64,000 nucleotides of DNA from Gemmatimonadota bacterium (GCA_039589295.1 JBDHHR010000001.1:127558-191557); one strand, 5' to 3'. Positions 47,918 to 63,211 are shown, counted from the stretch's first letter. The notes: generated by a model not told the origin, from the sequence alone. A program made the numbers and translations.

Positions 47918-48796
47918 TCAGGTTCGTTCTGGAAGTGGCCGCAGCTCCAACACGGCCGCGTCGCGGGAGAGCCAGCTGGCCCTTGCTACCCAGGCGATCC
48001 CCAGGACCGTCGCCAGGCTCAGCAGAAGTCCTCCCTCCGGACCGTAGTCGCCTCCGGTGAGAATGTCCGGTCCCGCGATCCAGGCGTCATAGCTCGGCGT
48101 GTCGATCTCCAGGCCACTGACGGGCAGGTCCGCGGCAAAACTCATCAACCAGTTCCACCCGAGATGAGCGCCGGTAACCACCCACAGGCTGTATGTCCTC
48201 CAGTACATGATGCCGAGCAAGATTCCGGCCAGCGCCGTGTTGGCGAATCCGAGCCCGCCTATGCCCGGGTTCGCCCCGTGAAGAGCCGCGAAAGCAGCCG
48301 CGGTCAGCAGAACCGCGGCCCGCGGGCCCAGGGCCTGGGCGAGCACCTGAAACGGGTAGCCGCGGAATACCAGCTCCTCCAAGAACGCCGCCAGGGTAAA
48401 CAATAACGTCGTGGCCAGCACCGCGCGGGTGAACTCCTGGGCGTTCCACACTCCCGTCCGCCACCCGATCCAACCCGCGGAGGCCATCACGACCACCACG
48501 GATCCGATGAGCACGGCACCTAACCCGAAGCCCCGGATGAAGTCCGTGACCGCTCGCACCCCCGGAACGAGACCGAGGCCGGCGAGCGAAGTCGACTCCA
48601 CCCCGGACATCATGACCCAGCTGGCTGCCAGTGCACCGGCAAGGGCCGGCCCGAGGGCCCACCATTCGAAGGCCAAACCGGCGTTCAGGCCCGCGAGGGC
48701 TACCCAGGTGTAAGCCAGCAGGGTCGCCAGAAGGAAGAGAAGGAGGACGAACAGGGTCAGCCTCCAACCCCACCACAGGCGCGAGTCGCGTTTCAG
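47918..48796 (-). CDS. CPBP family intramembrane metalloprotease (CAAX protease/Abi)
   Basis: Motifs [18 protein letters not shown] and HLGWNW. The track ORF overlaps bioY, so the true start is probably a non-ATG near 48796. Confidence 0.65.
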
Positions 48797-49374
48797 CGAA
48801 GCAGCCTTCGCACGTAGCTGCCCGGCCGGCGTCCCAGCAGGAACACGAGGGCCAGCTTGAGAGCGTCTCCGACCAGGAACGGGACCAGGCCTGTGGCCAC
48901 CGCCGTCTCCTTGCCTGCTGCCGCAGCCAGCCACGCCAACCCGGCGGCGTGAATGGCTGCCAGGCCCAGCACCAGCCCAACTACCCACCCGGCCACGCTC
49001 GCCTCCTGGCTGGCGAAACGGCCGGCGATGGCAGCCGCGACGGGAAACGCCAGGAGATACCCTCCCGTCGGCCCCAGCAGGTAGGCCAGTCCGCCGCCCG
49101 CCGCGAACACGGGAAGCCCCATCGCTCCGGCCGCCAGGTACGCGAGCTGGCTGGACGCGCCGAGGCGGCTGCCCAGTGTCACTCCCGCCAGCAGGACGGC
49201 AACGACCTGGAGCGTCAACGGGACGGCGATGCCTGGAATCGGTACGCTGAGCCTCGCGCCGACGGCGGTGAGCAGGGCGAAGCTAAGCACGCCCGTGATC
49301 CGGCGGAGTTGCACCGACCCCACCCGCCGCGCCGCGAGAGTCGTCGCCTCCGTTCGCGAAGCCTGTTGATTCAT
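48793..49374 (-). CDS. bioY: Biotin transporter BioY family
   Basis: Multi-TM protein with PIPGIAVPLTLQVVAVLLAG...AGAMGLPVFAAGGGLAYLLGPTGGYLLAFP. The start was trimmed to MNQQ, 3 nt after the thiolase stop. Confidence 0.7.
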   Translation of the reverse strand: MNQQASRTEATTLAARRVGSVQLRRITGVLSFALLTAVGARLSVPIPGIAVPLTLQVVAVLLAGVTLGSRLGASSQLAYLAAGAMGLPVFAAGGGLAYLLGPTGGYLLAFPVAAAIAGRFASQEASVAGWVVGLVLGLAAIHAAGLAWLAAAAGKETAVATGLVPFLVGDALKLALVFLLGRRPGSYVRRLLR

Positions 49375-50582
49375 GCTCTCTCCACGCTCAGAGCCACCGC
49401 GTTGCCGCCCCCCAGACACAAGGTGGCGATGCCCCTTTCGACTTCTCGATCCCGCATCGCGTACAGAAGAGTCGTGAGGATCCTCGCGCCGGATGCCCCT
49501 ATCGGGTGTCCGAGAGCGATCGCTCCGCCACGCACGTTGACCCGCTCGAGGTCGAGGTCCAGCGCACGGGCGTCGGCCAGTGCCTGCACCGCGAAGGCCT
49601 CGTTCATCTCGACCAGGCCGTAGTCCTCGAGGGAGGTACCTTCCTGATCCAGCAGCCTGCGCACCGCCAGGACCGGGGCGAAGAAGAGGTCCTGCGGCGC
49701 CGTGGCGCCGACCGAATATGCGCTGATCCGCGCGAGGATGTCCAGTCCGTTCGCACGTGCGTAGGCCTCCGAGGTGACGACCGTCGCGGCCGCGCCGTCG
49801 TTGAGCCCGGGAGCGTTCCCGGCCGTGACGCTGTGCTCGGTTACCTCGGGCGGAGCATCGGCCGCGAAGGCCGGTCTCAAGCGGGCCAGTGCCTCGAGCG
49901 AGGTGTCCCGCCGGGGCGTCTCGTCCACGTCAACGGTGACGGTGCCTTTCCGGCCCTCGATCTCCACCGGAACGATCTCCGCCACGAACTCTCCGGCGTC
50001 GATGGCGGCCACGGCTTTCCGGTGGCTCGACAGCGCGAACAGGTCCTGGTCCTCGCGCGAGATCCCCGCCTTGTGGGCCGTGTACTCGGCGTGCCCGCCC
50101 ATGTGACACTGGCCGAAGGAACACCACAGCCCATCGTGTATCAGCGAGTCCACGACAGGGCGATCACCGAACTTGACCCCCAACCGGTAGCCGGTCAGCA
50201 GGTGAGGGGCGTTCGACATGGACTCCATTCCGCCGGCGACCACGACCTGCTGATCGCCAGCCTTGATGGCCTGGGCTGCGAGCATCACCGCCTTGAGCCC
50301 CGAGCCGCAGACCTTGTTGACGGTCACCGCGGGAATCGTCTCCGGCAGCTCAGCCGCGATGGCAGCCTGCCGTGCCGGAGCCTGCCCCACGCCCGCCTGG
50401 ATAACGTTGCCCATGATCACGTCGTCTATCTCATCGCCGACTATTCCGCTGCGCTCGATCGCAGCGGCGATCGCCCGGCCGCCGAGCTGCGTAGCGGTGA
50501 GGGGCGACAGACCGCCGAGAAAACGGCCAGTGGGAAGCCGAACCGCCCCCACGATGACCGGTGTCTTTTCCGCATCACTCAT
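49371..50582 (-). CDS. Acetyl-CoA C-acetyltransferase (thiolase II)
   Basis: VNKVCGSGLKAV (active Cys), C-terminal GHPIGASGARI and CLGGGNAVA. The start was trimmed to MSDAEKTPVIVGA, where the ATG overlaps the upstream stop (ATGA). Confidence 0.9.
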   Translation of the reverse strand: MSDAEKTPVIVGAVRLPTGRFLGGLSPLTATQLGGRAIAAAIERSGIVGDEIDDVIMGNVIQAGVGQAPARQAAIAAELPETIPAVTVNKVCGSGLKAVMLAAQAIKAGDQQVVVAGGMESMSNAPHLLTGYRLGVKFGDRPVVDSLIHDGLWCSFGQCHMGGHAEYTAHKAGISREDQDLFALSSHRKAVAAIDAGEFVAEIVPVEIEGRKGTVTVDVDETPRRDTSLEALARLRPAFAADAPPEVTEHSVTAGNAPGLNDGAAATVVTSEAYARANGLDILARISAYSVGATAPQDLFFAPVLAVRRLLDQEGTSLEDYGLVEMNEAFAVQALADARALDLDLERVNVRGGAIALGHPIGASGARILTTLLYAMRDREVERGIATLCLGGGNAVALSVERA

Positions 50583-50806
50583 TTGAGCCACTCCTCGCAG
50601 CCGTCCCGGCGTCGCGTGTCCGCCAGACCGACGATCTCCCATTCGTCGACGACCCGTGCGATCTGAAAGACGTTCACGCCGCAGTGACTGAGCTGGCCGT
50701 TGAGGTAGAACGCGTTTCCTTCTCCGGAGTCTGCGCCCGCGTCTGATCGGCAACCGGCCCCTGAAGAACCGCGACTACCGACAGCGCGACGCTCAGGGGG
50801 CACCAC
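50579..50806 (-). CDS. Candidate small ORF (75 aa) translationally coupled to thiolase
   Basis: Its stop overlaps the thiolase ATG (ATGA), and its start lies 2 nt after the upstream MBL stop. The N-terminus is low-complexity. The C-terminal NAFYLNGQLSHCGVNVFQIARVVDEWEIVGL is protein-like. Confidence 0.3.
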   Translation of the reverse strand: MVPPERRAVGSRGSSGAGCRSDAGADSGEGNAFYLNGQLSHCGVNVFQIARVVDEWEIVGLADTRRRDGCEEWLK

Positions 50807-50807
50807 A

Positions 50808-51695
50808 TTACCGCTCCTCCGCGAGCGGATCGCTCACTTCGTCCACCAAGCGGCAACCGCTCTGCCCGTCCGACTGCGCCGCCGCGCGTCCCCAGGCTAC
50901 CCGCGGATCGTGCTCGAAGGCCAGGATCCAGCCCTCTTCTCCGGCTCGCCCGAGGATTCTGCGTTTGCTTTCCAGAGTGACCAGCGGCTCGACGTCGTAG
51001 CCCATAATCCATGGAAGCCGCAGGTGAGCCAGCGTCGGAACCAGGTCGGCCAGATACAGCAGGCGGACGTCGCCCAGTTCCACCACAACCGACTGGTGGT
51101 GAGGCGTGTGGCCCGGTGTATGCACGACCCGAACTCCGGGTGCCACCTCTCCGTCCGCGTCGGCGAAGTCGACGCGGCCGGCCTCCACCAGCGGCACGAC
51201 GTTGTCCCGAATGTAGCTGGCCCGGACCCGCTCGTTGTCCTGTTGCGCAAACTCCCACTCTCCGCGACGGATCACGTACCGGGCACCCGGGAAAGCGGCC
51301 TTAATCGATCCGTTATCGTCTCGAACCGTGTTCCCGCCTGCGTGATCGAAGTGAAGATGGGTGTTTATCACGATGTCGATCTGGTCCGGTTCAACCCCGA
51401 GGCCGCGCAGGGAGTCCTCCAGCCTCGTCGGATGTCCGTCGTTCTCGACCCCGTAAATCTCCCTGAACCTGGAATCCTCTTTGTTGCCCAGGCCCGTATC
51501 CACCAGGATCCTGAGTCCATCAGTCTCCACGAGCAGGCACCGCATGGCGAGAGGGATCCGGTTGCGATCGTCGGCCGGAGCAACGCGGACCCACAGAGGC
51601 TTCGGGACGACCCCGAACATGGCCCCTCCGTCAAGCCGGAGTCCGCCGGCGTGAACCGTGCTGACTCGAACGCCGCCGCCCTCCAGAACCGGCAT
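50808..51695 (-). CDS. MBL-fold metallo-hydrolase
   Basis: INTHLHFDHAGGN (HxHxDH), plus later TPGHTPHH. Confidence 0.8.
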   Translation of the reverse strand: MPVLEGGGVRVSTVHAGGLRLDGGAMFGVVPKPLWVRVAPADDRNRIPLAMRCLLVETDGLRILVDTGLGNKEDSRFREIYGVENDGHPTRLEDSLRGLGVEPDQIDIVINTHLHFDHAGGNTVRDDNGSIKAAFPGARYVIRRGEWEFAQQDNERVRASYIRDNVVPLVEAGRVDFADADGEVAPGVRVVHTPGHTPHHQSVVVELGDVRLLYLADLVPTLAHLRLPWIMGYDVEPLVTLESKRRILGRAGEEGWILAFEHDPRVAWGRAAAQSDGQSGCRLVDEVSDPLAEER

Positions 51696-51696
51696 C

Positions 51697-52557
51697 TCAA
51701 GCCTCCGCCGTGTGCCCGTCAGGCGGTGCCGCGGGTGTGGGGGCGAGGCTTCCGGTCAGCCATTGCTGAAGGTTCCTCCACGTATTCACACCCTGGCGGT
51801 CCGCCGCTGCCAGCAGGCGCAGGAGGATGCTCGCCGTCGCCCTCGCGTCTCCACCCGCCCGGTGCCGACCCACGATCTCGACGTCGTAGAAGCGGGCCAG
51901 CGAGTCCAGTCCCCGCCGGCGCAGGCCCGGCAGGGCCCGCCGCGCCAGCTTCACCGTGCAAAGCCGGGGACCTGAAGGCAGCAGCGATCGCGAACGCCTC
52001 ATTTCCTCAGCCACGAATCTCCAGTCGAAGCCCACGTTGTGGGCGACGAAGACTCTCCCGCGCAGGTTCTCCTGCACGACTCCGGCGACATCCTCGAAGC
52101 GCGGCGCGCCAGCCACCATCCCGGAATCGATGCCGGTCAGCCGGCTCACCCAGCGGGGAATGGCAAGGCCCGGATTGACCAGAGACTCGAACTCCCCGCT
52201 GACGCGCCCGCCGCTCACCTGCACGACCGCGATCTCCACTATCCGTGCGCCGCGCGTAACCGAGCTGCCGGTGGTTTCCACGTCCACGACCGCATAGTCC
52301 AGCTCGTCGAGTTGCGTATCCACGCCCAGCGACGGAACGGCCGTCAGCCGCCACACGCCCTGGCGGTCTACTTCCACCCGGCGATCCGTCCCCAGCAATT
52401 CATACACCAGTCGCGAAGCCAGTCCCGGAGGAGCCTGTTTCAGGCCGAAGACGGTTCGCGCCAGCACCTCTGTCGGCATCGGCGTTCCGCGGATCGCACT
52501 CAGGGCTCGCTGTACCAGGCTGGAGTCCGCCGCGAAATCCAACCCCGGTCCGGTCAC
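51697..52557 (-). CDS. DnaQ-like 3'-5' exonuclease domain protein (DEDDh) with N-terminal extension
   Basis: Exo I motif YAVVDVETTG, then HNVGFDWRF, then the Exo III region H...GGDARAT. It has a roughly 90 aa N-terminal region of unknown function. It overlaps the rex stop (ATGA). Confidence 0.75.
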   Translation of the reverse strand: MTGPGLDFAADSSLVQRALSAIRGTPMPTEVLARTVFGLKQAPPGLASRLVYELLGTDRRVEVDRQGVWRLTAVPSLGVDTQLDELDYAVVDVETTGSSVTRGARIVEIAVVQVSGGRVSGEFESLVNPGLAIPRWVSRLTGIDSGMVAGAPRFEDVAGVVQENLRGRVFVAHNVGFDWRFVAEEMRRSRSLLPSGPRLCTVKLARRALPGLRRRGLDSLARFYDVEIVGRHRAGGDARATASILLRLLAAADRQGVNTWRNLQQWLTGSLAPTPAAPPDGHTAEA

Positions 52558-53207
52558 GCCTTCTCCCCCGAGCCGTTCCCACCACTGGAGGAGAGCAGGA
52601 AGCTGAGACCTTCCAGCTCGAGAGACACGTCCATCGATCGCACAACGACATGCGGGGCCACTTCCAGCTTCACCGGAGCGAAGTTGAGGATCGCCGGGAC
52701 GCCAGCCGCGGCTGCCCTGGAGGCCACGCTCTGAGCTGAGTCAGGCGGCGTGGCGATGATGGCGATGTCGACCCGCGCTGACGCCAGGTCCGCCTCCAGC
52801 GACGCAAGCGAGCGGACTCGGACGCCCCCGAGCTTCTCGTCCACCTTGACGGGATCCGAGTCGAAGGCGGCGACGATATCGAATCCCCGCTGCGTCAGAT
52901 CGCCATAGCCCAACAAAGCCGAGCCGATCTTCCCCACCCCGATGACGGCGACGTGCCATCGGCGGCCGAGCCCGAGAATCTCCCGCAGTGAGCGCCTGAG
53001 CTCCGACGCCACGTATCCCTGTCCTCGCTTGCCGAACGACCCGAAGTGGCTCAGATCCTTCCGGACCTGGGCGGCCGTCGTGCCCGTTCCTTCCGCGAGC
53101 TCGCGGCTGGAGACAATGTCCTTCCCCACCCGCTCGAGATCCCGCAGGAACCGCAGGTAGCGGGAGAGCCGCCGGACCGCCGAGTCGGAGATTCTTTTTC
53201 TCGTCAT
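52554..53207 (-). CDS. rex: Redox-sensing transcriptional repressor Rex
   Basis: ISDSAVRRLSRYLRFLRDL winged-helix N-terminus (cf. B. subtilis Rex IPQATAKRLPLYYRFLKNL) and a Rossmann domain (HVAVIGVGKIGSALLGY). The long N-terminal extension of the track ORF was trimmed. Confidence 0.85.
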   Translation of the reverse strand: MTRKRISDSAVRRLSRYLRFLRDLERVGKDIVSSRELAEGTGTTAAQVRKDLSHFGSFGKRGQGYVASELRRSLREILGLGRRWHVAVIGVGKIGSALLGYGDLTQRGFDIVAAFDSDPVKVDEKLGGVRVRSLASLEADLASARVDIAIIATPPDSAQSVASRAAAAGVPAILNFAPVKLEVAPHVVVRSMDVSLELEGLSFLLSSSGGNGSGEKA

Positions 53208-53215
53208 GCACCGGC

Positions 53216-53233
53216 TTGTGAAAGTGTTCACAA
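53216..53233. promoter_or_regulatory. Rex operator (ROP box)
   Basis: TTGTGAAAGTGTTCACAA is a perfect match to the Rex consensus TTGTGAA-N4-TTCACAA. It lies 9 nt upstream of the rex start codon. Confidence 0.7.
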
Positions 53234-53275
53234 AAAGATAGCCGGGGGCAAACCCGATCTCAACACGGGATTCCG

Positions 53276-54127
53276 TCAGTTCTCCGGGGAAGATGGCGGT
53301 GCCTTCAGAACACCTCCCGGGTCCGCCATCTCCCGTTCCAGACGGTCGGCGAGAGCCACAAAATCCGCCGGTGTGAGCTGCTCCGGCCGGAGGCTGGCGG
53401 CGAGGTTGACGTCGGCCAGCACAGCCTCGGCAAGATCTTGAGTCAGCCCGTACGCGGGCGAGGTCCGCAGGATGCTCTGCATCTGCTTGCGGCGCATGGA
53501 GAACGCGGCGCGGGTCAGCCGGCGGAGGGAACCTATCTCCTCTCGGGACAGACACGGGGAACCTGGTTCGATAACGACGGCGGCGGAATCCACCCCCGGC
53601 ACCGGCCGGAACGCATGGCGACCGACACGGAAAGCGACTCGCGCCGAAGCACGCGCCTGTATACCCACCGTGAGTGCGCCAAAGGTCCGGGAGCCGGGCG
53701 AGGCGGTTATCCGATCCGCCACCTCCCGCTGCACCAGCACGACCATCCGCCGGGGAACCGGCAGAACCTCGAGGAAGCGGAACAGCAGCGGGGATGTAAT
53801 GGCGTAAGGCATGTTCGAGATGATTCGCAGGGGCTGCCGGCCCGCTACCAGAGATGTCAGATCGCACTCGAGCGCGTCGGCATGGACGAGCTCGACGTCA
53901 TCCCGCGCGCCCAGACCGGCGGCCAGTTCCGAGCACAGCCGGTCGTCCTTCTCCACTAGGATCAGGGTCCCGGCGCGTTCGGCCAGGATCTCGCTGATCT
54001 CCCCGTGCCCCGGCCCAACCTCCAGCACAACGTCGGCCGGCCCCGGCCCCAGCGCGTCTACCAGCTTGCGCCGAATGTTGGGGTCCGAAAGGAAGTTCTG
54101 GCTGAGTGACTTCTTTGCCCGTACCAC
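53276..54127 (-). CDS. rsmA: 16S rRNA (adenine1518/1519-N6)-dimethyltransferase
   Basis: KSLSQNFLSDPNIRRKLVDAL...VLEVGPGHGEISEIL is KsgA. Confidence 0.9.
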   Translation of the reverse strand: MVRAKKSLSQNFLSDPNIRRKLVDALGPGPADVVLEVGPGHGEISEILAERAGTLILVEKDDRLCSELAAGLGARDDVELVHADALECDLTSLVAGRQPLRIISNMPYAITSPLLFRFLEVLPVPRRMVVLVQREVADRITASPGSRTFGALTVGIQARASARVAFRVGRHAFRPVPGVDSAAVVIEPGSPCLSREEIGSLRRLTRAAFSMRRKQMQSILRTSPAYGLTQDLAEAVLADVNLAASLRPEQLTPADFVALADRLEREMADPGGVLKAPPSSPEN

Positions 54128-54131
54128 TCGG

Positions 54132-55649
54132 TCACTTCACCACGAGCGCCGTGCGATCGTCCGCCGATACTCCGCCGGGCGCACACGCCAGTTCGAAGAG
54201 CCCGTCCAGTATCGCCTGTGCCCCGGAGTCCGATCCCTCGAGCGCTACGGCGGTCAGCTGATCGTCGGACCAGAGCTGGTCCGTGCGCAGGCACTCGCTG
54301 ACGCCGTCCGTGAACATAAGGAGAGTATGGTCTCCTGGTCGCCACTCCACCTCGCGCTGCGCGTAGGAGTCGAACTCGGCGATCCCGAGCGGTGGGTTGA
54401 GCGCCTCGAGGCGTACCGCCTCCTCGGGACCGATGCGATACGCGTGGGGGTGGCCCGCGTTCGCATATCGCAGGACCTGTGTATCAGCGTCGATCACTGC
54501 GTAACACAACGTCATGTACATCTCCGTCGACTCGAGCTTCCGAACCAGCTCGTGGTGGATCCCCTTCAGAACCTCCGCCGGCTGTTCCTCCTCACTCACT
54601 ACCAGGGACGCGGCGCTCATCGTGAGCGCCATGATCAGGCCGGCCGAGTAGCCATGCGAGCTGACATCTCCCAGCATCACGCCCAGGCGGTCTCCCGGAA
54701 GCCTGAAGAAGTGGTAAAAATCACCGCCGACGGACTCTGCCGGCTCGCACCGCGCTGCCACGTCAGCGAGCGACTTGAAGTCGCCGAGTTCCGGCAGGAG
54801 CTTGAGTTGCAGGTGATGGGCCAGTTCCAGCTCGACCAACATCCGCTCCTGCTCCAGGCTCTCGCGTACCAGCCGGCCGTTCTCCATCGCCGCCGCGAGA
54901 TGACTGGCGATAGCTGCGGCCAGATTCACGTCCGCCTGTGAGAAACTTTCCCGACCCGCACCCCCGCGAAGGCTCAGTACGCCCACGGCATGCGACCGGC
55001 CGTGCAGCACCGAATGTCGCACCGGAACGGCGAGAAAAGGCCTCGCTTCTTCCTCGCCGTCCGCGCCAGGCGCCGCATCCCTGACGAACTTGGTGTGGGT
55101 CGAGTACACGTCCGCGATCGGAGATCGGCCGTCTCCCAATGGAACGCGGTCGGGGTGCACCGGCTCGGTGCCTCCCGAGGCGTAGACGGTAAGCTCACGT
55201 TCTCCTTCGTCGGGAACCCACAAGGCGGCGAGGTCGGCCTCCATCACCTCCATCACGTGGTCCAGGAGCTGACCCGCGGCTCTCTCCAGGTGAATGATGG
55301 AACCGAGCGTCTCACTGATGGACGTGAGGAGAGCGATCTCTTCGTACCGTTCAGCGAGCTCCTGGCTGAAGAAGTGCGCCTCCCGCTCCGAGGCGACCAG
55401 CCGGCAAAGCGACTCGCGCAGGAGATCGCGGCTCACCTTCCATTCGGCGCCGGTCGACGGACCTACTGCGACCCGGACGGCGACAGCGGGTGATACCGTC
55501 CACGTCTCCTCGATGAACTCGCTCCCGGCCGTGTTGCCCAGTGAGTCATGAAGGATGACCGGCCCCCCCTCGCCCTCCAAGACCGCCCGGAAGGGCAAGC
55601 CTGAAAGCTTGCGAAACGCAGCCAGGTACTCGCTGACCCGAGTCGTCAT
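54132..55649 (-). CDS. GAF-domain PP2C-type serine phosphatase (RsbU/SpoIIE-like)
   Basis: N-terminal GAF-like region and a C-terminal PP2C/SpoIIE domain (GDFYHFF, MLGDVSSHG, TDGVSE). The start was trimmed to MTTRVSEYL. Confidence 0.8.
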   Translation of the reverse strand: MTTRVSEYLAAFRKLSGLPFRAVLEGEGGPVILHDSLGNTAGSEFIEETWTVSPAVAVRVAVGPSTGAEWKVSRDLLRESLCRLVASEREAHFFSQELAERYEEIALLTSISETLGSIIHLERAAGQLLDHVMEVMEADLAALWVPDEGERELTVYASGGTEPVHPDRVPLGDGRSPIADVYSTHTKFVRDAAPGADGEEEARPFLAVPVRHSVLHGRSHAVGVLSLRGGAGRESFSQADVNLAAAIASHLAAAMENGRLVRESLEQERMLVELELAHHLQLKLLPELGDFKSLADVAARCEPAESVGGDFYHFFRLPGDRLGVMLGDVSSHGYSAGLIMALTMSAASLVVSEEEQPAEVLKGIHHELVRKLESTEMYMTLCYAVIDADTQVLRYANAGHPHAYRIGPEEAVRLEALNPPLGIAEFDSYAQREVEWRPGDHTLLMFTDGVSECLRTDQLWSDDQLTAVALEGSDSGAQAILDGLFELACAPGGVSADDRTALVVK

Positions 55650-56446
55650 GCTTCCAGGGTCAGCGTGACGGAGTTGCCCTTCTCGTTGAAGCGGATATCG
55701 TCCGTCAGGCTGCGCAGAAGGAACAAACCTCTGCCGTGGCTGCGCCATCGATTCTCCGGACGCGTAGGGTCGCCCACGACGGACGGGTCGAAGCCCGCAC
55801 CTTCGTCGGTGATGGTGACCACGGCTGTGCCCGGACGCAGTTCGGCATTCACCCGCACGAGCTTCGCGGGATCCTCCCTGTTTCCGTAGAGGATGGCGTT
55901 GGCCAGCGCTTCACCGATGGCGACACGCAAGTTGAGCGTCGCCCGGGAACCCGTGAAAGCCATCCGCTGGCAGGCCTCGACGACCTCCGCCACGACGTCA
56001 CGGACGTAGCTGACGCTCGATGGGAACTCGAGCTCCAGGCTGGCACTCAGCCCGGACGAGCGCAGGGCGCGGGTCCCTCCCTGCCCGGCCAGGTGGCGGC
56101 GCCAGCGAAGGCCCAGCTCCGCCGGGTTGATTGGATAGAACAGGTAGTCCCCGCAGCCGGCGGCAAGAGCCGCCAGAAGCCTGTCGACCGACTCGTTGTC
56201 CACGACTGCGATCAGCTCCAAGTCCGTACCAAAGGCGAGCCTGGCCTCGCGCGCCGAGTGATCGGCGTCGGCCAGGTCGAGCAGGGCCAGACCCGGCGCG
56301 ACTTGCGGCCAGTCCGCGCGTGTGGCCGCTATGGTCGTCTCCGCTCCCAGTTGTCTGAGCTCGCGCGCGAGATCGTCTGCGACCTCCCGCCGACCGGAGC
56401 AGATCAGGACCGTCGAGCCCGGCCTCCCCATGCCGTCGGAGCTCAC
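55646..56446 (-). CDS. Receiver-like (degenerate) domain fused to an RsbW/SpoIIAB-type anti-sigma-factor serine kinase (HATPase_c)
   Basis: The N-terminal roughly 120 aa have a CheY-like topology with the Asp57-equivalent present (LLDLADAD), but they lack the DD acidic pair (VLICSGRRE) and the conserved Lys (DYLFYPINP). The C-terminal half has N-box EALANAILYGN and G-boxes TDEGAGFDP and GRGLFLLRSL. Confidence 0.7.
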   Translation of the reverse strand: MSSDGMGRPGSTVLICSGRREVADDLARELRQLGAETTIAATRADWPQVAPGLALLDLADADHSAREARLAFGTDLELIAVVDNESVDRLLAALAAGCGDYLFYPINPAELGLRWRRHLAGQGGTRALRSSGLSASLELEFPSSVSYVRDVVAEVVEACQRMAFTGSRATLNLRVAIGEALANAILYGNREDPAKLVRVNAELRPGTAVVTITDEGAGFDPSVVGDPTRPENRWRSHGRGLFLLRSLTDDIRFNEKGNSVTLTLEA

Positions 56447-56456
56447 TTCCTCCCCA

Positions 56457-56795
56457 TCAGAAGCCCGAGAGAGCCATCGCCCGCGTATCGGCGATCTGAA
56501 AAAGCGTATCCAGCTTGGTGAGCTCGAACAGCGTCCTGAGGTCTTCGTTGAGCCCCGCCAGCCGCAGGCCGCCTCCTGCTTCCCGGATCTTCTTGGACAG
56601 GCTCACCAGCACCCCCAGGCCCGATGAATCGATATAGCTGGACGCGGAGAAGTCGATGAGGAATTTCCGTTCGCCCGCGTCGAGCCGATCAAGCACGACC
56701 TGCTTGAGCTCCTGGCGGTTTCCGACGATGAGCTCGCCATCCACCGAGACGATCGTGATGCCGCTGGTTTCCGAGATCGAGAAACTCATCCTCAC
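56457..56795 (-). CDS. STAS-domain anti-sigma-factor antagonist (RsbV/SpoIIAA-like)
   Basis: 112 aa STAS with the phosphorylatable-Ser context DFSASSYIDSSGLGVLV. Confidence 0.85.
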   Translation of the reverse strand: MRMSFSISETSGITIVSVDGELIVGNRQELKQVVLDRLDAGERKFLIDFSASSYIDSSGLGVLVSLSKKIREAGGGLRLAGLNEDLRTLFELTKLDTLFQIADTRAMALSGF

Positions 56796-56819
56796 TCCTG
56801 CGTGATTGGGACGTGCTCT

Positions 56820-57785
56820 TTACGCGCCCGTCTCAGCGTGCGCCATCAAAGCGGTAATGTAGGACACGTGCACGATGTCATCGATAGAGGCACCGCGCGA
56901 CAGATCGTTCAGTGGGCGTGCGAGCCCCTGCAGAATGGGCCCCAACGCGTGTGCGCCTCCAAGCCAGCGAACCAGCTTGTAGCCGATGTTGGCAGCGTTG
57001 AGGTCCGGAAACACGAGAATGTTCGCCTGGCCGCCCAACGTCGAGCCGGGAGCCTTTCTTTCCGCCACTTCGGGGCTCAAGGCGGCGTCCGCCTGAAGCT
57101 CTCCGTCGCAGATCACGTCCGGGCAACGGCCGCGGAAGATCCGCATCGCCTCCCGCAGCCTCGTGACCGACTCACCGACGGCGGAGCCGTAGGTCGAGTA
57201 AGAGAGGAACGCCAGGCGCGGCGCGTCGCCCACGATCACACGCCTGGCCCGGCAGGCCGCCTGTGCAATATCCGCCAGCTGAGTCTCCGTCGGGTGAGGC
57301 ACGACCGCAGCATCGGCGAAGGTGAGTACGCGTTCCGGCTCGCGCCCGCGTGCCGGGATAATCATGTAGAAGGACCCCGATACGGTTCGCATGCCCGGTT
57401 CCGTGCCGAGGACCTTCAGTCCGGCCCGAACCACATCTGCGGTCGAGCTCTGCGCTCCGGCCACAACCCCGTCCAGCACTCCAGCCTTCATCAGCGCCAC
57501 GGCTATGTACAGCGGCTCCCGGGCGCTCTCCCCGAGAGAAGCCGGCAGGTGCATCCTTGCTGCCTTTCCCACTCCGCGGTCTGCGGGTTCGAGCAACTCG
57601 AGGTCCGGCAGATCATGCAGCAGGTCGGCCACCTCGTCGAGCTCCTCAACCAGGACAGGACGGATTCCGCCGTTCCGGTAGAGCCGACGGATTGCTTCGC
57701 GGGTCCTCACCTCCCGGGCCTCGGGGAATCCCAGCCGTACCGCTCTCCGGGCTGCTCGGCTCTCCAGGTCGGAGAGGAAGCTCAT
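56820..57785 (-). CDS. pta: Phosphate acetyl/butyryl-transferase (PTA_PTB family)
   Basis: Conserved PTA_PTB core (FLSYSTYGS, ILVFPDLNAANIGYKLV, SRGASIDDIV). The start was trimmed to the Met overlapping the coaD stop (ATGA). Confidence 0.8.
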   Translation of the reverse strand: MSFLSDLESRAARRAVRLGFPEAREVRTREAIRRLYRNGGIRPVLVEELDEVADLLHDLPDLELLEPADRGVGKAARMHLPASLGESAREPLYIAVALMKAGVLDGVVAGAQSSTADVVRAGLKVLGTEPGMRTVSGSFYMIIPARGREPERVLTFADAAVVPHPTETQLADIAQAACRARRVIVGDAPRLAFLSYSTYGSAVGESVTRLREAMRIFRGRCPDVICDGELQADAALSPEVAERKAPGSTLGGQANILVFPDLNAANIGYKLVRWLGGAHALGPILQGLARPLNDLSRGASIDDIVHVSYITALMAHAETGA

Positions 57786-58285
57786 CCCGTTCCGGACGCC
57801 TGCCCGTAACGTCGCTGCAGTCGGACGAGCACCGGCGCCGGCACGAAGCGGGACACGTCGCCTCCCAGACTGGCCACCTCCCGCACGAGGGACGAGCTGA
57901 GAAACGTGTAGCTGCTCGCCGGGGCCATGAAGATTACCTCGATCTCCGGCCACAGCGAACGGTTCATCAGGGCCATCTGGAACTCGTACTCGAAATCGCT
58001 GACGGCTCGCAGGCCTCTTATGATCAGGCGGGCTGCACGCTCGCGGGCGAAGTCCACCAGCAGCCCCGAGAACGAAGCGACCTCCACCCGCGGCTCGTCC
58101 TCGTACACCTCCTGCATGACCTCGACGCGTTCTTCGACCGAGAACGCCGCAGCCTTCTCCTGCGTGGCGGTTCCCGCCACGGCCACGATGAGTCGATCAG
58201 CGAGCTTGAGGCTCCGACGCACGATGTCGTCGTGGCCCAGAGTCAGCGGATCGAACGAACCGGGGTAGATGGCGATTCGCAGGTT
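57782..58285 (-). CDS. coaD: Phosphopantetheine adenylyltransferase
   Basis: IAIYPGSFDPLTLGHDDIV (H/T-x-G-H). The start was trimmed and is probably non-ATG. Confidence 0.85.
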   Translation of the reverse strand, partial: NLRIAIYPGSFDPLTLGHDDIVRRSLKLADRLIVAVAGTATQEKAAAFSVEERVEVMQEVYEDEPRVEVASFSGLLVDFARERAARLIIRGLRAVSDFEYEFQMALMNRSLWPEIEVIFMAPASSYTFLSSSLVREVASLGGDVSRFVPAPVLVRLQRRYGQASGTG

Positions 58286-58841
58286 AGTCTCCAACTGATG
58301 CTCCTCCCGCGCCTGCCCGAAAGAAGGACAGGATGGTGTCACCGTACCGGCGGCGCCAGGCGGGCGCTACCTCTGTCGGGTCGGCGGGACCATGCTCCAC
58401 GCACAGGAGGCCCGCGAAGGGTGACTTCACGAAGCGTCTCACCAACCGGTCCGCACCTTCGGACTCGTACGGTGGATCCGCCAGCACGATGTCGAATTCG
58501 TGATCGACCGTGGACAACCGACTGACGAAACTCAGGGCCTCTCCCCGGGTCACCTGTGTCCGCTGCTCCACGTCCAACGCGTGCAGGTTCCTGCGTAGGA
58601 CCGCGCACGCTCGGCGGTCCGCTTCCACGAAATGAACCTTGGAAGCGCCGCGCGACAACGCCTCCAGGCCTAGAGCGCCGCTGCCGGCGTACAGATCGAG
58701 CACCCGGGCTCCGGGCAACGCCCCTCCGAGAGCGCTGAACCACGCCTCCCGCACCACCTCCCGCGTGGGTCGTGTCTCGCGCCCCGGCGGCGCCTCGATG
58801 CGGCGCCCGCCGAACTCGCCGGCAACGATCCGCAGGCTCAC
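58284..58841 (-). CDS. rsmD: 16S rRNA (guanine966-N2)-methyltransferase
   Basis: RIVAGEFGGRRIEAPPGRETRPTREVVREAWFSAL...VLDLYAGSGALGLEALSRGA...DPPY. The start was trimmed to a GTG after the recJ stop. Classic rsmD-coaD pair. Confidence 0.8.
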   Translation of the reverse strand: MSLRIVAGEFGGRRIEAPPGRETRPTREVVREAWFSALGGALPGARVLDLYAGSGALGLEALSRGASKVHFVEADRRACAVLRRNLHALDVEQRTQVTRGEALSFVSRLSTVDHEFDIVLADPPYESEGADRLVRRFVKSPFAGLLCVEHGPADPTEVAPAWRRRYGDTILSFFRAGAGGASVGD

Positions 58842-60568
58842 GTCGCGGCAGGTCGGAAGTCCAGGATGCGGGCCTGCAGTTCCCGGCGACCGTTCCACCG
58901 ATTCTCCGTAAGCTCGAAGGCCACATCTACCCTGTCGAGAGCCCGTGCCTCCGCGACACGTCGGCCGAGCCCGAAGCCGATGGCCGGGAGGCGTCCCCCT
59001 TCGCTCACCAGCTCCGCCCGCAGGTGCCCTCCGGCGGCTCCTACGCGGGCCGTCCTGCCCAGGCCCACACCCGGCACCATCAGCACCGGGCTGGGGTTCC
59101 CCGCCCCGAACGGGCCCAGGTGCGCGAGCCACCGCTGCAGCTCTCTCTGGACTCCCGCCAGCGGCAGGACCAGATCGAGTCGGAGCTCTTCCACGGCCTC
59201 ACGGTCTGACAGATCACGAGCGGCGAGCTCCAGCACGCGGCCAGCAAATTCCTCGATTCGGGAGCGCCTGATCGAGAGTCCGGCAGCCATCCGATGTCCA
59301 CCGAACCGCTCCAGCAGGTGCTCGCACTGGCGGAGAGCCTCGTACAGGTTGAAGCCTTCTACCGATCGTCCCGAACCGCGGCCGACCTCCCCATCGAACG
59401 TCACCACGACGGCCGGACAGTTGAGGCGCTCAACCAAGCGGGACGCTACGATCCCCACGACACCCGGATGCCATCCGTCTCCCCAAAGCACGACCGCCCG
59501 ATCGCGGCTCCCGTCGAACCGTGTCTCGAGCAGGGCCTCGACCTCCGCAAACACCCGACTATCGGTGAGACGCCGCTGCGCGTTCTGTTGATCCAGATGC
59601 TCCGCGAGCCTGTCGGCTTCCTCCTTGTCCTCCGTCACGAGGAGCTGCAGCCCGGCTTCGGGAGCTGCCATTCGTCCGACCGCGTTGAGGCGCGGTCCGA
59701 GACGGAAGGAGATGTGCTCGGCCTCTATCTCGCCTCCCGACGGTATCCCGACCCGCGCCAGCAGCGCACGAAGGCCAGGCTTTCGCGTCCGCGACAGCGC
59801 GCGCAGTCCGGCGCGCACCAGGATCCGGTTCTCGCCCAGGAGAGGCATCTGATCCGCCACCGTACCGACGGCCACAAGATCCAGGTGCTGATTCAACTCG
59901 GGATCAGGGATGCTGTAGCGGTCATACAGGACCGTGAGCAGCTTGAACACGACCCCGACCCCGGCCAGTCCACGGAAGGGGTAGCGGCTGTCGCGGCGGA
60001 CCGGGTTCACGACCGCAACGGCTTCCGGCAGGCGGTCGCCGGGTCTATGATGATCCGTAACCACTACGTCGATGCCGGATTCCCCCGCCTTTGCGACGGC
60101 GTCCACCGCCGTAACGCCGCAGTCGGCAGTGACGATCAACGTCGCCCCGGCGCTCCCGGCGCTGTCGAGGCCCGCCTCCGACAGGTCGTAGCCGTCACGT
60201 GTCCGGTGCGGAACGAAGGTCCGTATCCGTCCGCCCAGTCGCTGCAGCCCGCGCGTCAACAGGGCGGCCGCACACATTCCGTCGGCGTCGTAGTCGCCAT
60301 GGACCAGGATCGTCTCGGCGCCGGAGATGGCTCGCTGCACCCGCTCCACCGCCCGGCCGATGTCCGGCAGTTCACCGGGATCGTGAAGACCGGCGAGACT
60401 GGGTCGGAGGAATCTCCGTGCTTCCTCGAAGGTGGCCAGCCCCCGCCGCAGGAGGATGAGACACACGTCGTCCGGCAGCCCCAGCGCATCCGTTAGTTCG
60501 CGGACACTGTCCTCGCCCACCTGGGCCGGCTCTATCCATCTTTTGGGAGCCGCTGTCACCTGGCTCAT
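58838..60568 (-). CDS. recJ: Single-stranded-DNA-specific exonuclease RecJ
   Basis: DHH motifs (ILVHGDYDADGMCAAALL, VVVTDHH) and the DHHA1 domain. 576 aa. Confidence 0.9.
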   Translation of the reverse strand: MSQVTAAPKRWIEPAQVGEDSVRELTDALGLPDDVCLILLRRGLATFEEARRFLRPSLAGLHDPGELPDIGRAVERVQRAISGAETILVHGDYDADGMCAAALLTRGLQRLGGRIRTFVPHRTRDGYDLSEAGLDSAGSAGATLIVTADCGVTAVDAVAKAGESGIDVVVTDHHRPGDRLPEAVAVVNPVRRDSRYPFRGLAGVGVVFKLLTVLYDRYSIPDPELNQHLDLVAVGTVADQMPLLGENRILVRAGLRALSRTRKPGLRALLARVGIPSGGEIEAEHISFRLGPRLNAVGRMAAPEAGLQLLVTEDKEEADRLAEHLDQQNAQRRLTDSRVFAEVEALLETRFDGSRDRAVVLWGDGWHPGVVGIVASRLVERLNCPAVVVTFDGEVGRGSGRSVEGFNLYEALRQCEHLLERFGGHRMAAGLSIRRSRIEEFAGRVLELAARDLSDREAVEELRLDLVLPLAGVQRELQRWLAHLGPFGAGNPSPVLMVPGVGLGRTARVGAAGGHLRAELVSEGGRLPAIGFGLGRRVAEARALDRVDVAFELTENRWNGRRELQARILDFRPAAT

Positions 60569-60637
60569 ATCCAGCTGCCAGTCCTCGATGGCCTGCTCCG
60601 ACGCAGATCATGTGGATCGCCCGCGACCGCTCGCATC

Positions 60638-61396
60638 TCACTCCTCCACGTGCAGGATCACTCCGCATGCCTGGCAGACGACGAGATCCCGGCCGGATTT
60701 GATCTCCGCCTGCGTCTGAAGCGGAATGGCTGTATAACAATTCCCGCACACGCTTTCCACCAGCGGAGCCAGCGTGTTCGCCGCGCGGCCGGCGCGAACG
60801 CGATCGTACAGCGAGCGCGCCTCGTGGTCGATTCGCAGGGCCTGGTTCTCGCGGCCGTCGAGGTGGACCGCGAGAGACTCCTGCAGCTCCTTCCTGCGGG
60901 CTGCAATCTCATCCTTCCGCCGACTGTGGCCATCGCGGACCTCCCGCAGGTTCTCCTCCGCGTCCGAGAGTGCGTCCCGCGCCCTTTCCTGATCCTGCAT
61001 GGCGTCCAGCGTCTGGTCTTCCGCCGCAACCAGGTTAAGCCTGGCCGCATCGACCTCGACCCGGGCTGCCATGTGCTCCCGCATATTGTGCACTTCCTGC
61101 GCTCGGGTCTGGAGGCGCTTCAGGGTTGCCCGCCCGGCCTGTACGGTTCGTTCAAAGCGTCTGAGCTCCGTTTCCACCTCCGTCAGCCGCGACCGGTACT
61201 CGGCCTCCTGTTTCTCCAGCTGCAGGATCTGCTCGTCCAGCGCCTCTTCCTCGACATCCAGAGCCCGCAACTCGGACCGGGCCCGGCCGATCTGGGTGTC
61301 CAGCTCCTGGAGACTGAGCAACGCATCTATCCTCTCGCTTCCCATCGCCTCTCCATTGCCAACTGCCATTCGCTCTCCATGTCTTGCGTCCGCCAT
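60638..61396 (-). CDS. Coiled-coil protein with C-terminal C4 zinc ribbon (COG1579-like)
   Basis: Long heptad-rich region and a C-terminal CGNCYTAIPLQTQAEIKSGRDLVVCQACGVIL. Confidence 0.7.
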   Translation of the reverse strand: MADARHGERMAVGNGEAMGSERIDALLSLQELDTQIGRARSELRALDVEEEALDEQILQLEKQEAEYRSRLTEVETELRRFERTVQAGRATLKRLQTRAQEVHNMREHMAARVEVDAARLNLVAAEDQTLDAMQDQERARDALSDAEENLREVRDGHSRRKDEIAARRKELQESLAVHLDGRENQALRIDHEARSLYDRVRAGRAANTLAPLVESVCGNCYTAIPLQTQAEIKSGRDLVVCQACGVILHVEE

Positions 61397-61399
61397 TCG

Positions 61400-63211
61400 C
61401 TATCGAGTCGGCGATGGCGTCGCCTCCGAATACCGGCGCAGGAAACTGAGGGGAACGCCGGCCTCCCTCAACTCCCTGGCGATTTGTTCCTTCTCCACCA
61501 GGAGTTCCCGGGCCTGCTCCTCCTCGGCGATCTTCAATTCGCGGTCGATGTGTGCCAGCCGCTCGATCCGGTCCCGGTAGACGAGCCTGCGTACCGTCTC
61601 GGCGAACACGTCTGCGGGATGGACGAATTCCGTCGAATCGGCCGACAGCCCATCCCATAGCCGTGCGGCGCTCTCATCCAGGCGTCTGCCCGGCTCCTCC
61701 GACTGACCCCTCTCCGCTTCCGCGAGCAACGCTCCATAGACGGCCCTCGCCCTGGCGTCCCGAAAGTGCGTCGCCGCCAGTCCCTGCTCCGCGGCGGCTG
61801 TAATGAGGGCGGGGTCGCGTCGAAGGAGGATGAGCAGCGTCCTCTCTGCCGCCGTCTCCGCATCCGGCGGCCTCGTCGTGCCGGGCCGCCGTCCCTGCAC
61901 CCGCCCCGGTACGGCTCGGCGCTCAGGGCGCCATCTGGCTACCTCGCTCACCAGCGTCTCCCGCCGCACACCGGTGCGCTCGGACGCCTGGTTCAGGTAG
62001 ATGTCCAGCAGGGCGGGGTCCTTCACCGACCTGAGGGTGCTCAGCAGTCCGTCCACTGCTCGGCGACGCCCCTCGATGCTTTCGAGGTAGCCCTGCCGCT
62101 CCAGAATCTGGAGCTTGCGCTCGAGGACATCCACAGCGTCATCGATGTAGCGCCTGAGCTCGTCCGGACTCTTGTGGCGCAACAGCGAATCGGGATCTTC
62201 GCCGGGCGGAAAACTTACTACCATCGGGTGCACACCGGCGGCGAGCAGCGCGTCCGCTGCCCGGAAAGTGGCCCGCAGTCCGGCCGCGTCGCTGTCGTAC
62301 AGCAGGTAGGATCTCTTTCCGTACCGCGCCAGCAATGCGGCCTGCTCGTCCGTCAGCGCTGTTCCGAGTGCCGCAACCCCCGTTCGGAAGCCTTTCGCAT
62401 GGAGTGACAGCACATCCATGTATCCTTCGGCTACCAGGCTGTAGCCCTCGCGCCGAATGCTGTGCCGAGCCCAGCTTAAACCATACAGGGAGCGGCCCTT
62501 GTGGAAGATCGGCGTCTCGGGGGAATTGATGTACTTCGGGGTGTGCTCGTCCGCCGCTCCCAGCACCCGTCCCCCGAAGGCGATCGGCCTGTCTCGCAGA
62601 TCCCGGATGGAGAAGACCAAACGACTGCGGAACCGGTCGTATGGCTCCTCCGCTCGGTCGCTGGTTGTCACCAAGCCCGCCTCGAGCAGCGCGTCCTCCT
62701 CGATCCCTCTGGCCACGGCGGCTTTCCGCAGATCCCGCCATGCGTCCGGCGCGTAGCCCAAGCCGAAGCGCTCCGCCTCCTCCAGACCGACTCCGCGGGA
62801 TGACAGGTACTCGCGAGCCGGTGCACCCACATCTGCATCATGCAGTTGAGCTCCGAACCATTCCTCCGCGAAGGCCGTGACCTCGCGCAGATACGCATAC
62901 GGGTCCTCCCGACCCACTCCCTCTTCGGGAATCTCCACACCGACGCGGGTCGCCAGGTGGCGGACAGCCGACGGAAAGTCGAAGCCGAGATGCTTCATAA
63001 GGAAACCGAAGACGTCTCCGCCCTCACCGCATACGAAACATTTGAAGATTCCCCGCACCGGGTCGACGGAGAAGTTCGGCCCCTCTCCGCCATGCAGCGG
63101 ACAGGGGCCGCGGTAGGTCTTTCCGGATTTCTTCAGCGAGACGTACTCGCTACACACCTCTAGGATATCGGCTCGTTCCCTGATCTCCTGGACCAGGGCA
63201 TCGCTCACCAT
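61400..63211 (-). CDS. dnaG: DNA primase
   Basis: Zinc-binding CPLHGGEGPNFSVDPVRGIFKCFVCGEGGD, a TOPRIM domain and a C-terminal helicase-interaction region. 603 aa. Confidence 0.95.
   Translation of the reverse strand: MVSDALVQEIRERADILEVCSEYVSLKKSGKTYRGPCPLHGGEGPNFSVDPVRGIFKCFVCGEGGDVFGFLMKHLGFDFPSAVRHLATRVGVEIPEEGVGREDPYAYLREVTAFAEEWFGAQLHDADVGAPAREYLSSRGVGLEEAERFGLGYAPDAWRDLRKAAVARGIEEDALLEAGLVTTSDRAEEPYDRFRSRLVFSIRDLRDRPIAFGGRVLGAADEHTPKYINSPETPIFHKGRSLYGLSWARHSIRREGYSLVAEGYMDVLSLHAKGFRTGVAALGTALTDEQAALLARYGKRSYLLYDSDAAGLRATFRAADALLAAGVHPMVVSFPPGEDPDSLLRHKSPDELRRYIDDAVDVLERKLQILERQGYLESIEGRRRAVDGLLSTLRSVKDPALLDIYLNQASERTGVRRETLVSEVARWRPERRAVPGRVQGRRPGTTRPPDAETAAERTLLILLRRDPALITAAAEQGLAATHFRDARARAVYGALLAEAERGQSEEPGRRLDESAARLWDGLSADSTEFVHPADVFAETVRRLVYRDRIERLAHIDRELKIAEEEQARELLVEKEQIARELREAGVPLSFLRRYSEATPSPTR

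Follow-up and report, generated by a model that had tools for sequence, protein, structure and literature searches.

Three consecutive open reading frames (ORFs) on the minus strand, filling positions 54132-56795 of a 64,000-nucleotide stretch from a Gemmatimonadota bacterium (GCA_039589295.1, JBDHHR010000001.1:127558-191557; this whole stretch is hereafter called the window), encode a STAS protein, a kinase and a phosphatase that, judging by their sequences, form a genuine partner-switching system. As an overall explanation, we propose a working serine-phosphorylation switch that would have been inherited vertically as a core regulatory module of the Gemmatimonadota, a proposal that we hold to be an even call.

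Partner switching as a kind of regulation, the absence of an adjacent sigma gene and the combination of a receiver (REC) domain with an RsbW-type kinase are already known, the latter from LvrC and from canonical versions that are common in databases. New here are the pseudo-receiver version of this architecture, the restriction of the pseudo-receiver to the Palauibacterales inside a phylum-wide and positionally fixed module, and a pattern of conservation that is inverted and sets the STAS protein apart.

The three proteins and the predicted switch

The STAS protein scored 79.4 bits with the Pfam STAS model (cut-off 22.6) and 71.5 bits with the NCBIfam anti-sigma-factor-antagonist superfamily model TIGR00377 (cut-off 53.45), and its best solved relatives in HMMER searches were TM1442, SpoIIAA and RsbV. 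The serine of the DSSG motif is the phosphosite in SpoIIAA and RsbV, and in the HMMER alignment Ser55 of the window protein was aligned with the corresponding serine of TM1442, SpoIIAA and RsbV. Both Ser55 and the surrounding DSSGLG motif were invariant (72/72 distinct orthologues), and 52 of the 110 positions of the protein were conserved at 90% or more in the same set. We infer that Ser55 would be phosphorylated in this protein. An MlaB-type STAS protein, involved in lipid transport, was also considered and rejected, as the corresponding model gave 35.7 bits against a cut-off of 90 and no Mla genes were found nearby.

Regarding the kinase, the Pfam model HATPase_c_2 matched amino acids (aa) 141-263 with 91.9 bits (cut-off 27.4), and this domain was closest in fold to SpoIIAB and RsbW. 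Its ATP-binding boxes were intact, namely N (E179, N183), G1 (D214-x-G216-x-G218-F) and G2 (G238-R-G240), and they were invariant in the alignment of 25 full-length homologues, which were 49-75% identical to the window protein. The AlphaFold (AF2) model of the kinase (mean predicted local distance difference test, pLDDT, of 87.8) consisted of a (beta-alpha)5 domain (aa 12-119), a low-confidence linker (aa 121-134) and a Bergerat domain (aa 135-265).

The phosphatase scored 132.5 bits with the Pfam SpoIIE/PP2C model (cut-off 25) and 41.6, 40.7 and 30.4 bits with the GAF_3, GAF_2 and GAF models, respectively. The PP2C motifs GGD310FY, GD328VSSHG, FTD448G and D497D498RT were invariant in 25 homologues, and Foldseek matched the PP2C fold to P. 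aeruginosa RssB, Rv1364c, SpoIIE and SiaA, with the motifs aligning to the first three, and the GAF region to the GAF domains of PtsP and PDE2A. In the AlphaFold model (pLDDT 78.6), a small alpha/beta module is followed by a 50-residue helix, the GAF domain, a helix (aa 238-284) and the PPM domain. No Pfam match was obtained for aa 1-116, and the N-terminal module, composed of one helix and four strands and continued by the 50-residue helix, was conserved in close relatives only. The GAF domain was evolutionarily labile in the phosphatase family, and none was detected in one sub-lineage; small-molecule sensing by this domain is plausible. For RsbU-type phosphatases, GAF-containing ones included, activation through a coiled-coil linker has been proposed, and the long helices that flank the GAF domain in the window protein fit this transduction model (PMC12143880).

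Since the N, G1 and G2 boxes are intact and the DSSG motif is invariant, the RsbW-type kinase is expected to phosphorylate Ser55 of the STAS protein. The phosphatase would strip this phosphate once its N-terminal sensor or GAF domain is switched on, with the signal passing via the helical linkers to the PP2C domain, as its architecture and the coiled-coil-linker model for RsbU-type phosphatases suggest. The dephosphorylated STAS protein would then bind the kinase dimer and alter the binding partners of either the kinase or the STAS protein itself. We consider it very likely that the core of the switch, comprising kinase, phosphatase and dephosphorylated STAS protein, operates in this manner.

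In line with these results, an earlier sequence-only reading of this DNA, which had described three tightly spaced minus-strand genes encoding a complete phosphorylation-based partner-switching set, was borne out. The ORFs and the gene calls coincided with the positions that it had given, and the STAS serine, the GHKL boxes, the PP2C aspartate motifs and a sensor were all present. Its identification of a GAF-PP2C phosphatase agreed with the SpoIIE score, the three GAF models and the Foldseek matches, and that of a degenerate receiver fused to an RsbW-type kinase with the HATPase_c_2 score, the AlphaFold fold and the REC profile match and pocket alignment described below. When the domain scores were compared with the thresholds of the hidden Markov models, as that reading had proposed, all were far above cut-off, with the exception of Response_reg on the single kinase sequence.

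The gene coordinates (Table 1) were taken from public calls on sequence-identical contigs (GCA_039584485.1, GCA_039590875.1). The STAS gene has an alternative GTG start at 56795, two codons upstream of the called ATG; an exact look-up of the resulting 112-aa form returned no record, while the 110-aa form, which begins at the downstream ATG used by the callers, is recorded. For the kinase, some callers choose Met6 as the start, which yields a protein of 261 aa. Along the strand, a pta-like gene is separated by 30 nucleotides (nt) from the STAS gene, which is followed after 10 nt by the kinase gene; this overlaps the PP2C gene by 4 nt (ATGA), and a further 4 nt separate the latter from ksgA. The 10-nt gap and the 4-nt overlap point to co-translation (translational coupling) of STAS protein, kinase and phosphatase.

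Table 1. Positions of the module genes, their predicted domains and other features in the window
Feature	Position	Strand	Basis or remark
STAS-domain protein, anti-sigma-factor-antagonist type, 110 aa	56457-56789	-	gene call, Pfam and NCBIfam
Ser55 codon (YIDSSGLG), predicted phosphorylation site	56625-56627	-	read from sequence
Pseudo-receiver + RsbW/SpoIIAB-type Ser kinase fusion, 266 aa	55646-56446	-	gene call, Pfam, AlphaFold
N-terminal receiver-fold domain of kinase, ~aa 11-120	56087-56416	-	degenerate phospho-acceptor pocket
Bergerat (GHKL) kinase / anti-sigma-like domain, ~aa 135-265	55652-56044	-	N, G1, G2 boxes
Sensor-GAF-PP2C phosphatase, 505 aa	54132-55649	-	gene call, Pfam, AlphaFold
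Small alpha/beta module (aa 1-62) and long helix (aa 68-116) of phosphatase	55302-55649	-	AF2
GAF domain of phosphatase, ~aa 118-257	54879-55298	-	Pfam and Foldseek
Long linker helix (aa 238-284) and PPM/PP2C catalytic domain (~aa 305-505)	54135-54938	-	SpoIIE score, AF2
pta-like phosphotransacetylase gene, upstream neighbour	56820-57785	-	Pfam PTA_PTB
rsmA/ksgA (16S rRNA dimethyltransferase), downstream neighbour	53276-54127	-	TIGR00755 230 bits (cut-off 171)
Sensor histidine kinase, membrane, 394 aa, AtoS/ZraS-like (E = 2e-27)	19334-20518	-	between serS and uvrD/pcrA
Two tRNA genes	34073-34147, 34214-34284	-	Rfam

A degenerate receiver on the kinase

The N-terminal domain of the kinase is a true REC homologue. 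The Pfam Response_reg model did not reach E = 0.1 on the single kinase sequence; the profile of the 25 homologues matched, over its positions 6-145, solved receivers such as PrrA (E = 1.7e-8). The profile of the kinase matched LvrC (E = 2.1e-17) and RsbW (E = 1.6e-13), and LvrC (9qih) was also the top Foldseek match of the kinase model, across both domains (E = 2.6e-19). A canonical comparison set was obtained by a HMMER search of 1.84 billion representative proteins, in which many proteins of 268-300 aa matched the full kinase profile, one of them being a "response regulator" from Nitrospinota; these full-profile matches were aligned with the window kinase.

In this alignment, the V-D-D-E acidic pair found at positions 17-19 in the distant fusions was replaced in the window family by S17-x-R19, with a variable middle residue. 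Similarly, T/S followed by G/A at positions 82-83 gave way to V/A/L/I followed by D/E (V82/D83 in the window), and K-P at positions 104-105 to Y/F/H/L followed by P105 (Y104 in the window), whereas the acceptor D57 was retained, as in the distant fusions. Residues S17, R19, D57, D83, F103 and P105 were invariant in the window kinase family, the aromatic switch residue Y101 and cis-Pro105 were kept, and the alpha4-beta5-alpha5 stretch (AAGCxDYLFxPxNxxEL) was the best-conserved part of the domain.

Receiver phosphotransfer needs the Mg2+-binding acidic pair, the Thr and the Lys. Their loss, with only D57 left, therefore marks the domain as a pseudo-receiver, and the invariant replacement residues, together with the conserved alpha4-beta5-alpha5 stretch, point to selection for a new, phosphorylation-independent role. 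From these substitutions it is likely that the pseudo-receiver is not phosphorylated by two-component chemistry.

An explanation in which the domain is still a functional receiver, with D57 phosphorylated by a histidine kinase and the protein acting as an LvrC-type response regulator that joins a two-component pathway to the switch, would account for the invariant D57 at the canonical acceptor position, for the retention of Y101 and cis-Pro105 and for the homology to LvrC across both domains. It is, however, very improbable given the state of the pocket: at the two Mg2+-binding acidic positions there is now a Ser that is invariant and a residue that varies, the Arg behind them is invariant as well, and all family members have a hydrophobic residue instead of Thr/Ser and Tyr, Phe, His or Leu instead of Lys, whereas the fusions from other phyla keep the whole canonical set. 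Further, the single sequence falls short of the Response_reg level given above and no histidine kinase is encoded next to the module; the nearest, which is the sole one in the window and is itself devoid of an adjacent response-regulator gene, lies 35 kb away.

The fusion of REC to an RsbW-like Bergerat domain is common to the window kinase and LvrC of Leptospira interrogans (LIC11110; PDB 9qih), but the latter keeps the canonical pocket, of which the window kinase retains D57 only. In LvrC, described in 2026, the histidine kinase LvrB phosphorylates the canonical receiver at D53, the alpha4-beta5-alpha5 face of this receiver is packed onto the partner's Bergerat domain, and no sigma target is known (PMC13269768). 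LvrC is not described as lying within a STAS/PP2C operon (PMC13269768), whereas the window kinase is predicted to be translationally coupled to both. By analogy with the REC domain of LvrC, the pseudo-receiver would be a fixed regulatory or dimerisation module packed on the Bergerat domain, and its invariant pocket (S17, R19, D57, D83) may serve to bind a molecule different from phosphate. A role in regulating or organising the kinase dimer is probable.

Conservation of the module and its possible output

One genome per species was scanned for relatives of the module. Homologues of the module proteins were annotated as Gemmatimonadota or marine benthic group, and the named relatives with the same kinase architecture, Candidatus Benthicola, Carthagonibacter and Palauibacter, are Candidatus Palauibacterales. 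The window itself belongs to a marine, Palauibacterales-like metagenome-assembled genome of the Gemmatimonadota. A relative of the kinase was encoded at 77 distinct loci, 76 of which carried the module in a conserved 14-gene block (window ~49371-63211) with the order dnaG, zinc-ribbon, recJ, rsmD, coaD, pta, STAS, kinase, PP2C, ksgA, rex, RNase T-like, MBL-fold and thiolase. According to tblastn with the 14 window proteins (loci L003-L078), this order was kept in Palauibacterales, Gemmatimonadaceae and Longimicrobiales, apart from an inversion of rex in most Gemmatimonadaceae loci, and it was confirmed by independent gene calls from a distant lineage. The synteny of these 14 functionally unrelated genes is unusually stable.

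A complete block, with 54-82% identity to the window, was also present in a contig labelled as an Akkermansiaceae metagenome-assembled genome (L013, CAXMRU010000183.1), which is probably mis-binned.

Kinase and phosphatase were found in several architectures. Firstly, a separate pseudo-receiver-kinase (~261 aa) accompanied by a GAF-PP2C protein, as in the window (architecture A). Secondly, a single pseudo-receiver-kinase-GAF-PP2C polypeptide of ~775-805 aa, present at 8 loci (L003, L007, L013, L032, L038, L040, L042, L045; architecture B). Thirdly, a pseudo-receiver-kinase-PP2C polypeptide of ~601-612 aa with no Pfam-detectable GAF domain, present at 5 loci, Palauibacter included (L046-L049, L051; architecture C). 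Lastly, a single-domain kinase of ~140-185 aa accompanied by a GAF-PP2C protein, in Gemmatimonadaceae and Longimicrobiales (architecture D). The pseudo-receiver was restricted to the Palauibacterales within a phylum-wide module. The kinase-phosphatase fusions in 13 related loci provide Rosetta-stone support for a functional unit, and the sensor parts of the module are, on this comparison of sequences, its labile parts.

Between the window and distant orders, the full-length STAS protein showed a median identity of 73% and was encoded by the slowest-evolving gene of the neighbourhood, compared with 45% for the kinase domain and 40% for PP2C. Among the neighbours, for which proteins with at least 10 comparisons were used, the values were 29% (zinc-ribbon), 40% (DnaG), 41% (KsgA), 43% (RecJ), 47% (RsmD), 49% (RNase T-like), 50% (Pta-like), 52% (Rex), 55% (CoaD) and 58% (MBL-fold). 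Codon identity among identical residues was 0.48 for STAS and 0.40-0.51 for the neighbours, which indicates that synonymous sites are equally saturated and that the constraint acts on the STAS protein itself; both a recent transfer of the STAS gene and a constraint at the nucleotide level were ruled out on the same grounds. In Bacillus and Staphylococcus, STAS is the least conserved partner of the switch, which is the opposite of the pattern in the window. That the STAS protein evolves more slowly than both of its enzymes suggests an extra, highly conserved binding partner as the simplest explanation.

Because the STAS protein is by far the most constrained component, we favour a model in which it would act as a hub and would bind, besides its two enzymes, a highly conserved protein from outside the operon, resembling SypA, RbaV and HsbA rather than a pure anti-sigma decoy. 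We rate this role of the STAS protein, as output hub acting on a conserved non-local partner, at slightly less than an even chance. Precedents for STAS proteins as output are SypA and RbaV, whose targets are unknown (PMC8256260; PMC3999984), and HsbA (PMC6482189).

A sigma factor encoded near the module was also searched for. In Pfam-annotated gene calls spanning the entire window plus a few kb past each end, no Sigma70 or Sigma54 domain was detected. Validated RpoE, SigB and RpoD queries gave no tblastn match at E < 0.1 in 85 sequences (1.32 Mb, related loci and window), a search that extracytoplasmic function sigmas could escape. Likewise, the Pfam-annotated gene calls of seven loci contained no sigma gene, and none was found within ~10 kb of the module in ~80 related loci. 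A sigma gene hidden in the non-syntenic gaps of relatives was considered too, but the gaps inspected (rex-RNase T and PP2C-ksgA) hold arginine-deiminase-like and BON/LysM-like ORFs (translations read by eye). The sequence-only reading had reported that the window lacks a sigma factor and that the module is embedded between pta-coaD-rsmD and ksgA-rex. Both statements held: the search for an adjacent sigma gene just outside the window or in related loci was likewise negative, and the NCBIfam and Pfam models identified the flanking genes as pta-like, coaD and rsmD upstream of the module and as rsmA/ksgA and rex downstream of it. We propose that the output of the module is not encoded locally. Modules without a neighbouring sigma gene are common (PMC8256260), and such an absence is by itself no proof of a non-sigma output.

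In a classical anti-sigma switch whose target is encoded elsewhere in the chromosome, the kinase dimer would sequester a sigma70-family factor, alternative or primary, which the dephosphorylated STAS protein would free, the latter having no other partner. This would be in agreement with the kinase fold, closest to those of the true anti-sigma factors SpoIIAB and RsbW, with the anti-sigma role assigned to LvrC, its closest two-domain relative (PMC13269768), and with the source annotations, which name the proteins RsbV, RsbW and RsbU; Chlamydia sigma66 is moreover a proposed target that is not encoded beside its module (PMC8256260). Nevertheless, we regard this explanation as a serious but somewhat doubtful one. 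In addition to the lack of a sigma gene in the 64-kb window and near the related modules, the conservation of the antagonist, at 73% identity and far above the 45% of the presumed anti-sigma domain, is unusual for such a model, a FliA-type target is unlikely since Palauibacterales are mostly devoid of flagellar genes (PMC10469786), and the sigma target of LvrC itself is unknown.

Alternatively, the module might directly control its own gene block, with the dephosphorylated STAS protein or the kinase binding either the Pta-like enzyme (acetyl-phosphate/CoA node) or RsmA/KsgA and RsmD (ribosome maturation). In line with this, the pta-like gene and rsmA lie 30 nt upstream and 4 nt downstream on the same strand, the order pta-STAS-kinase-PP2C-ksgA is found in nearly all loci of three orders, and Rex and a thiolase/3HCDH/ACAD cluster are encoded close by. 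However, the whole 14-gene block is syntenic, including the unrelated dnaG and recJ, so that adjacency may reflect a frozen gene order. Besides, pta is missing at this position in two loci (L068 and L072), where coaD is directly followed by STAS and the module is kept, and in Gemmatimonadaceae ~580 nt with a likely opposite-strand gene separate PP2C from ksgA. Pta, KsgA and RsmD also evolve much faster than STAS, which would not be expected for a co-evolving direct partner. Taken together, direct control of the block appears quite improbable.

A broader version of the STAS hub model would be a phylum-wide, housekeeping-level switch, with STAS as the effector of a conserved non-sigma partner in translation/ribosome maturation or at the acetyl-CoA/acetyl-phosphate node, and the Palauibacterales pseudo-receiver as a new input domain that binds a ligand or protein via the S17, R19, D57 and D83 pocket. 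We consider this combination unlikely.

Several points weigh against the hub model and the mechanism proposed for the switch. Phosphorylation, dephosphorylation and binding are all predicted from the proteins' sequences. By its structure, the kinase domain is an anti-sigma factor, and the sigma search covered the window and the related loci. A small protein with two enzymes to fit, a kinase and a phosphatase, is under constraint in any case, which makes the argument for an extra partner an indirect one. With regard to the pseudo-receiver, the geometry between the kinase domains is uncertain (AF2 predicted template modelling score, pTM, 0.55; linker pLDDT ~57), and an LvrC-like packing on the Bergerat domain is a conjecture that goes beyond this low-confidence geometry; the invariance of D57 may leave room for some non-canonical chemistry at this position. 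Finally, the transcription unit is deduced from gene spacing only.

Comparison with known partner switches

The three activities and folds predicted here are the same as those of RsbV-RsbW-RsbU/RsbP and SpoIIAA-SpoIIAB-SpoIIE of Bacillus subtilis, with a STAS protein carrying the DSSG serine, a GHKL serine kinase and a PPM phosphatase whose N-terminal sensor is placed on a helical linker. The Bacillus kinases are single-domain proteins, unlike the two-domain window kinase, and in Bacillus sigB or sigF is encoded in the same operon as the switch. Scores with the NCBIfam RsbW and SpoIIAB equivalog models were 30-36 bits against cut-offs of 135-155, and those with the SpoIIAA and SpoIIE equivalog models were also far below cut-off, which places the window proteins in the same superfamilies as their Bacillus counterparts but not among the orthologues of these. 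Stressosome-coupled sigB modules (RsbR/S/T) differ as well: paralogues of RsbR/RsbS and RsbT were not found in the window, where STAS and HATPase_c_2 are each represented by a single gene. The GAF-PP2C protein RsbZ of Clostridioides difficile acts in a sigB operon, unlike the window phosphatase, in which an additional N-terminal module of 60 aa and a helix of 50 aa precede a single GAF domain; in relatives of the window phosphatase this GAF domain is poorly conserved or was not detected.

In Chlamydia RsbV1/V2-RsbW-RsbU, Vibrio fischeri SypA/SypE, Bordetella BtrU/V/W and Rhodobacter capsulatus RbaV/W/Y, as in the window, STAS, kinase and PP2C are present with no adjacent sigma gene. However, chlamydial RsbU has a periplasmic sensor domain, in SypE a canonical REC lies between kinase and PP2C (kinase-REC-PP2C), and none of these systems is described as a phylum-wide syntenic core or with a pseudo-receiver on the kinase. 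In several of them, the output is the STAS protein in its unphosphorylated state, with an unknown target (PMC8256260; PMC3999984).

Pseudomonas HsbR (with HsbA), Shewanella CrsR (with CrsA) and Rv1364c of M. tuberculosis join an RsbW-type kinase and a PP2C domain in one polypeptide acting on a STAS partner, similarly to the 13 fused relatives of the window proteins; the PP2C and RsbW domains of Rv1364c were among the fold matches of the window domains. The domain order of HsbR and CrsR is REC-PP2C-kinase, which differs from REC-kinase-(GAF)-PP2C in the fused relatives. Proteins of the SypE/HsbR/CrsR type are single polypeptides, whereas kinase and phosphatase are encoded in the window by separate genes with a 4-nt overlap. 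HsbR/CrsR-type regulators have phosphorylatable receivers and known targets, RpoS and FlgM (PMC6482189). In the literature that could be searched, we found no paper linking Gemmatimonadota with STAS, anti-sigma or Rsb proteins. An anti-phage defence reading was rejected, given that PADLOC returned no family match at E <= 0.001 for the three proteins.

Partner switches are widely found without a sigma gene beside them, and only a few of their outputs are known. The present module is tractable in this respect, being single-copy at its locus and held at one fixed genomic position across a poorly studied phylum, and the unusual constraint on the STAS protein suggests a conserved partner, which might be isolated from cultured Gemmatimonas. 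The natural series of kinases, from single-domain through pseudo-receiver-kinase to pseudo-receiver-kinase-GAF-PP2C and pseudo-receiver-kinase-PP2C, could show how receivers control RsbW-type kinases after the loss of phosphorylation, complementing the 2026 LvrC structure. Should the output be an ordinary alternative sigma factor, the finding would shrink to an improved annotation for Gemmatimonadota.

Genomic surroundings of the module

Apart from the module, the gene calls of the window contained housekeeping genes only. They include the genes for PNPase, S15, RibF, TruB, RbfA, IF2, NusA, RimP, AroA, UvrD, SerS and the sensor histidine kinase, isoprenoid and lipid genes, those for ThiI, enolase, ThiL, SHMT and GDH, an acyl-CoA/thiolase cluster, and the genes for MBL-fold, RNase T-like exonuclease, Rex, RsmA, Pta-like, CoaD, RsmD, RecJ, DnaG and MutS2. 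The pta-like protein scored 281 bits with the NCBIfam phosphotransacetylase model, under the cut-off of 310. An Rfam search of the whole window matched nothing near the module, and the only matches were the two tRNAs.

A promoter and terminator scan of positions 51500-64000 yielded site counts at chance level and did not define the limits of transcription units. The ksgA-rex spacer (53208-53275) held the sole promoter-like and terminator-like pair near the module, which is consistent with a transcription unit ending after ksgA.

In most relatives, rex and the RNase T-like gene are separated by a gene of ~410 aa (e.g., L003 13523-15136; L053 14271-15506), which was recognised as arginine-deiminase-like by reading its translation (GGGGPRCMT motif). 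This gene is missing from the window, where rex shares 4 nt with the exonuclease gene (52557/52554). Lastly, a bioY gene (~48793-49419, minus strand) is located between the thiolase and Rce1-like genes in both the window and JBDHAY010000003.1, whereas the otherwise identical contig JBDGXS010000017.1 (L001) is devoid of bioY and has a longer Rce1-like gene, a strain-level indel.

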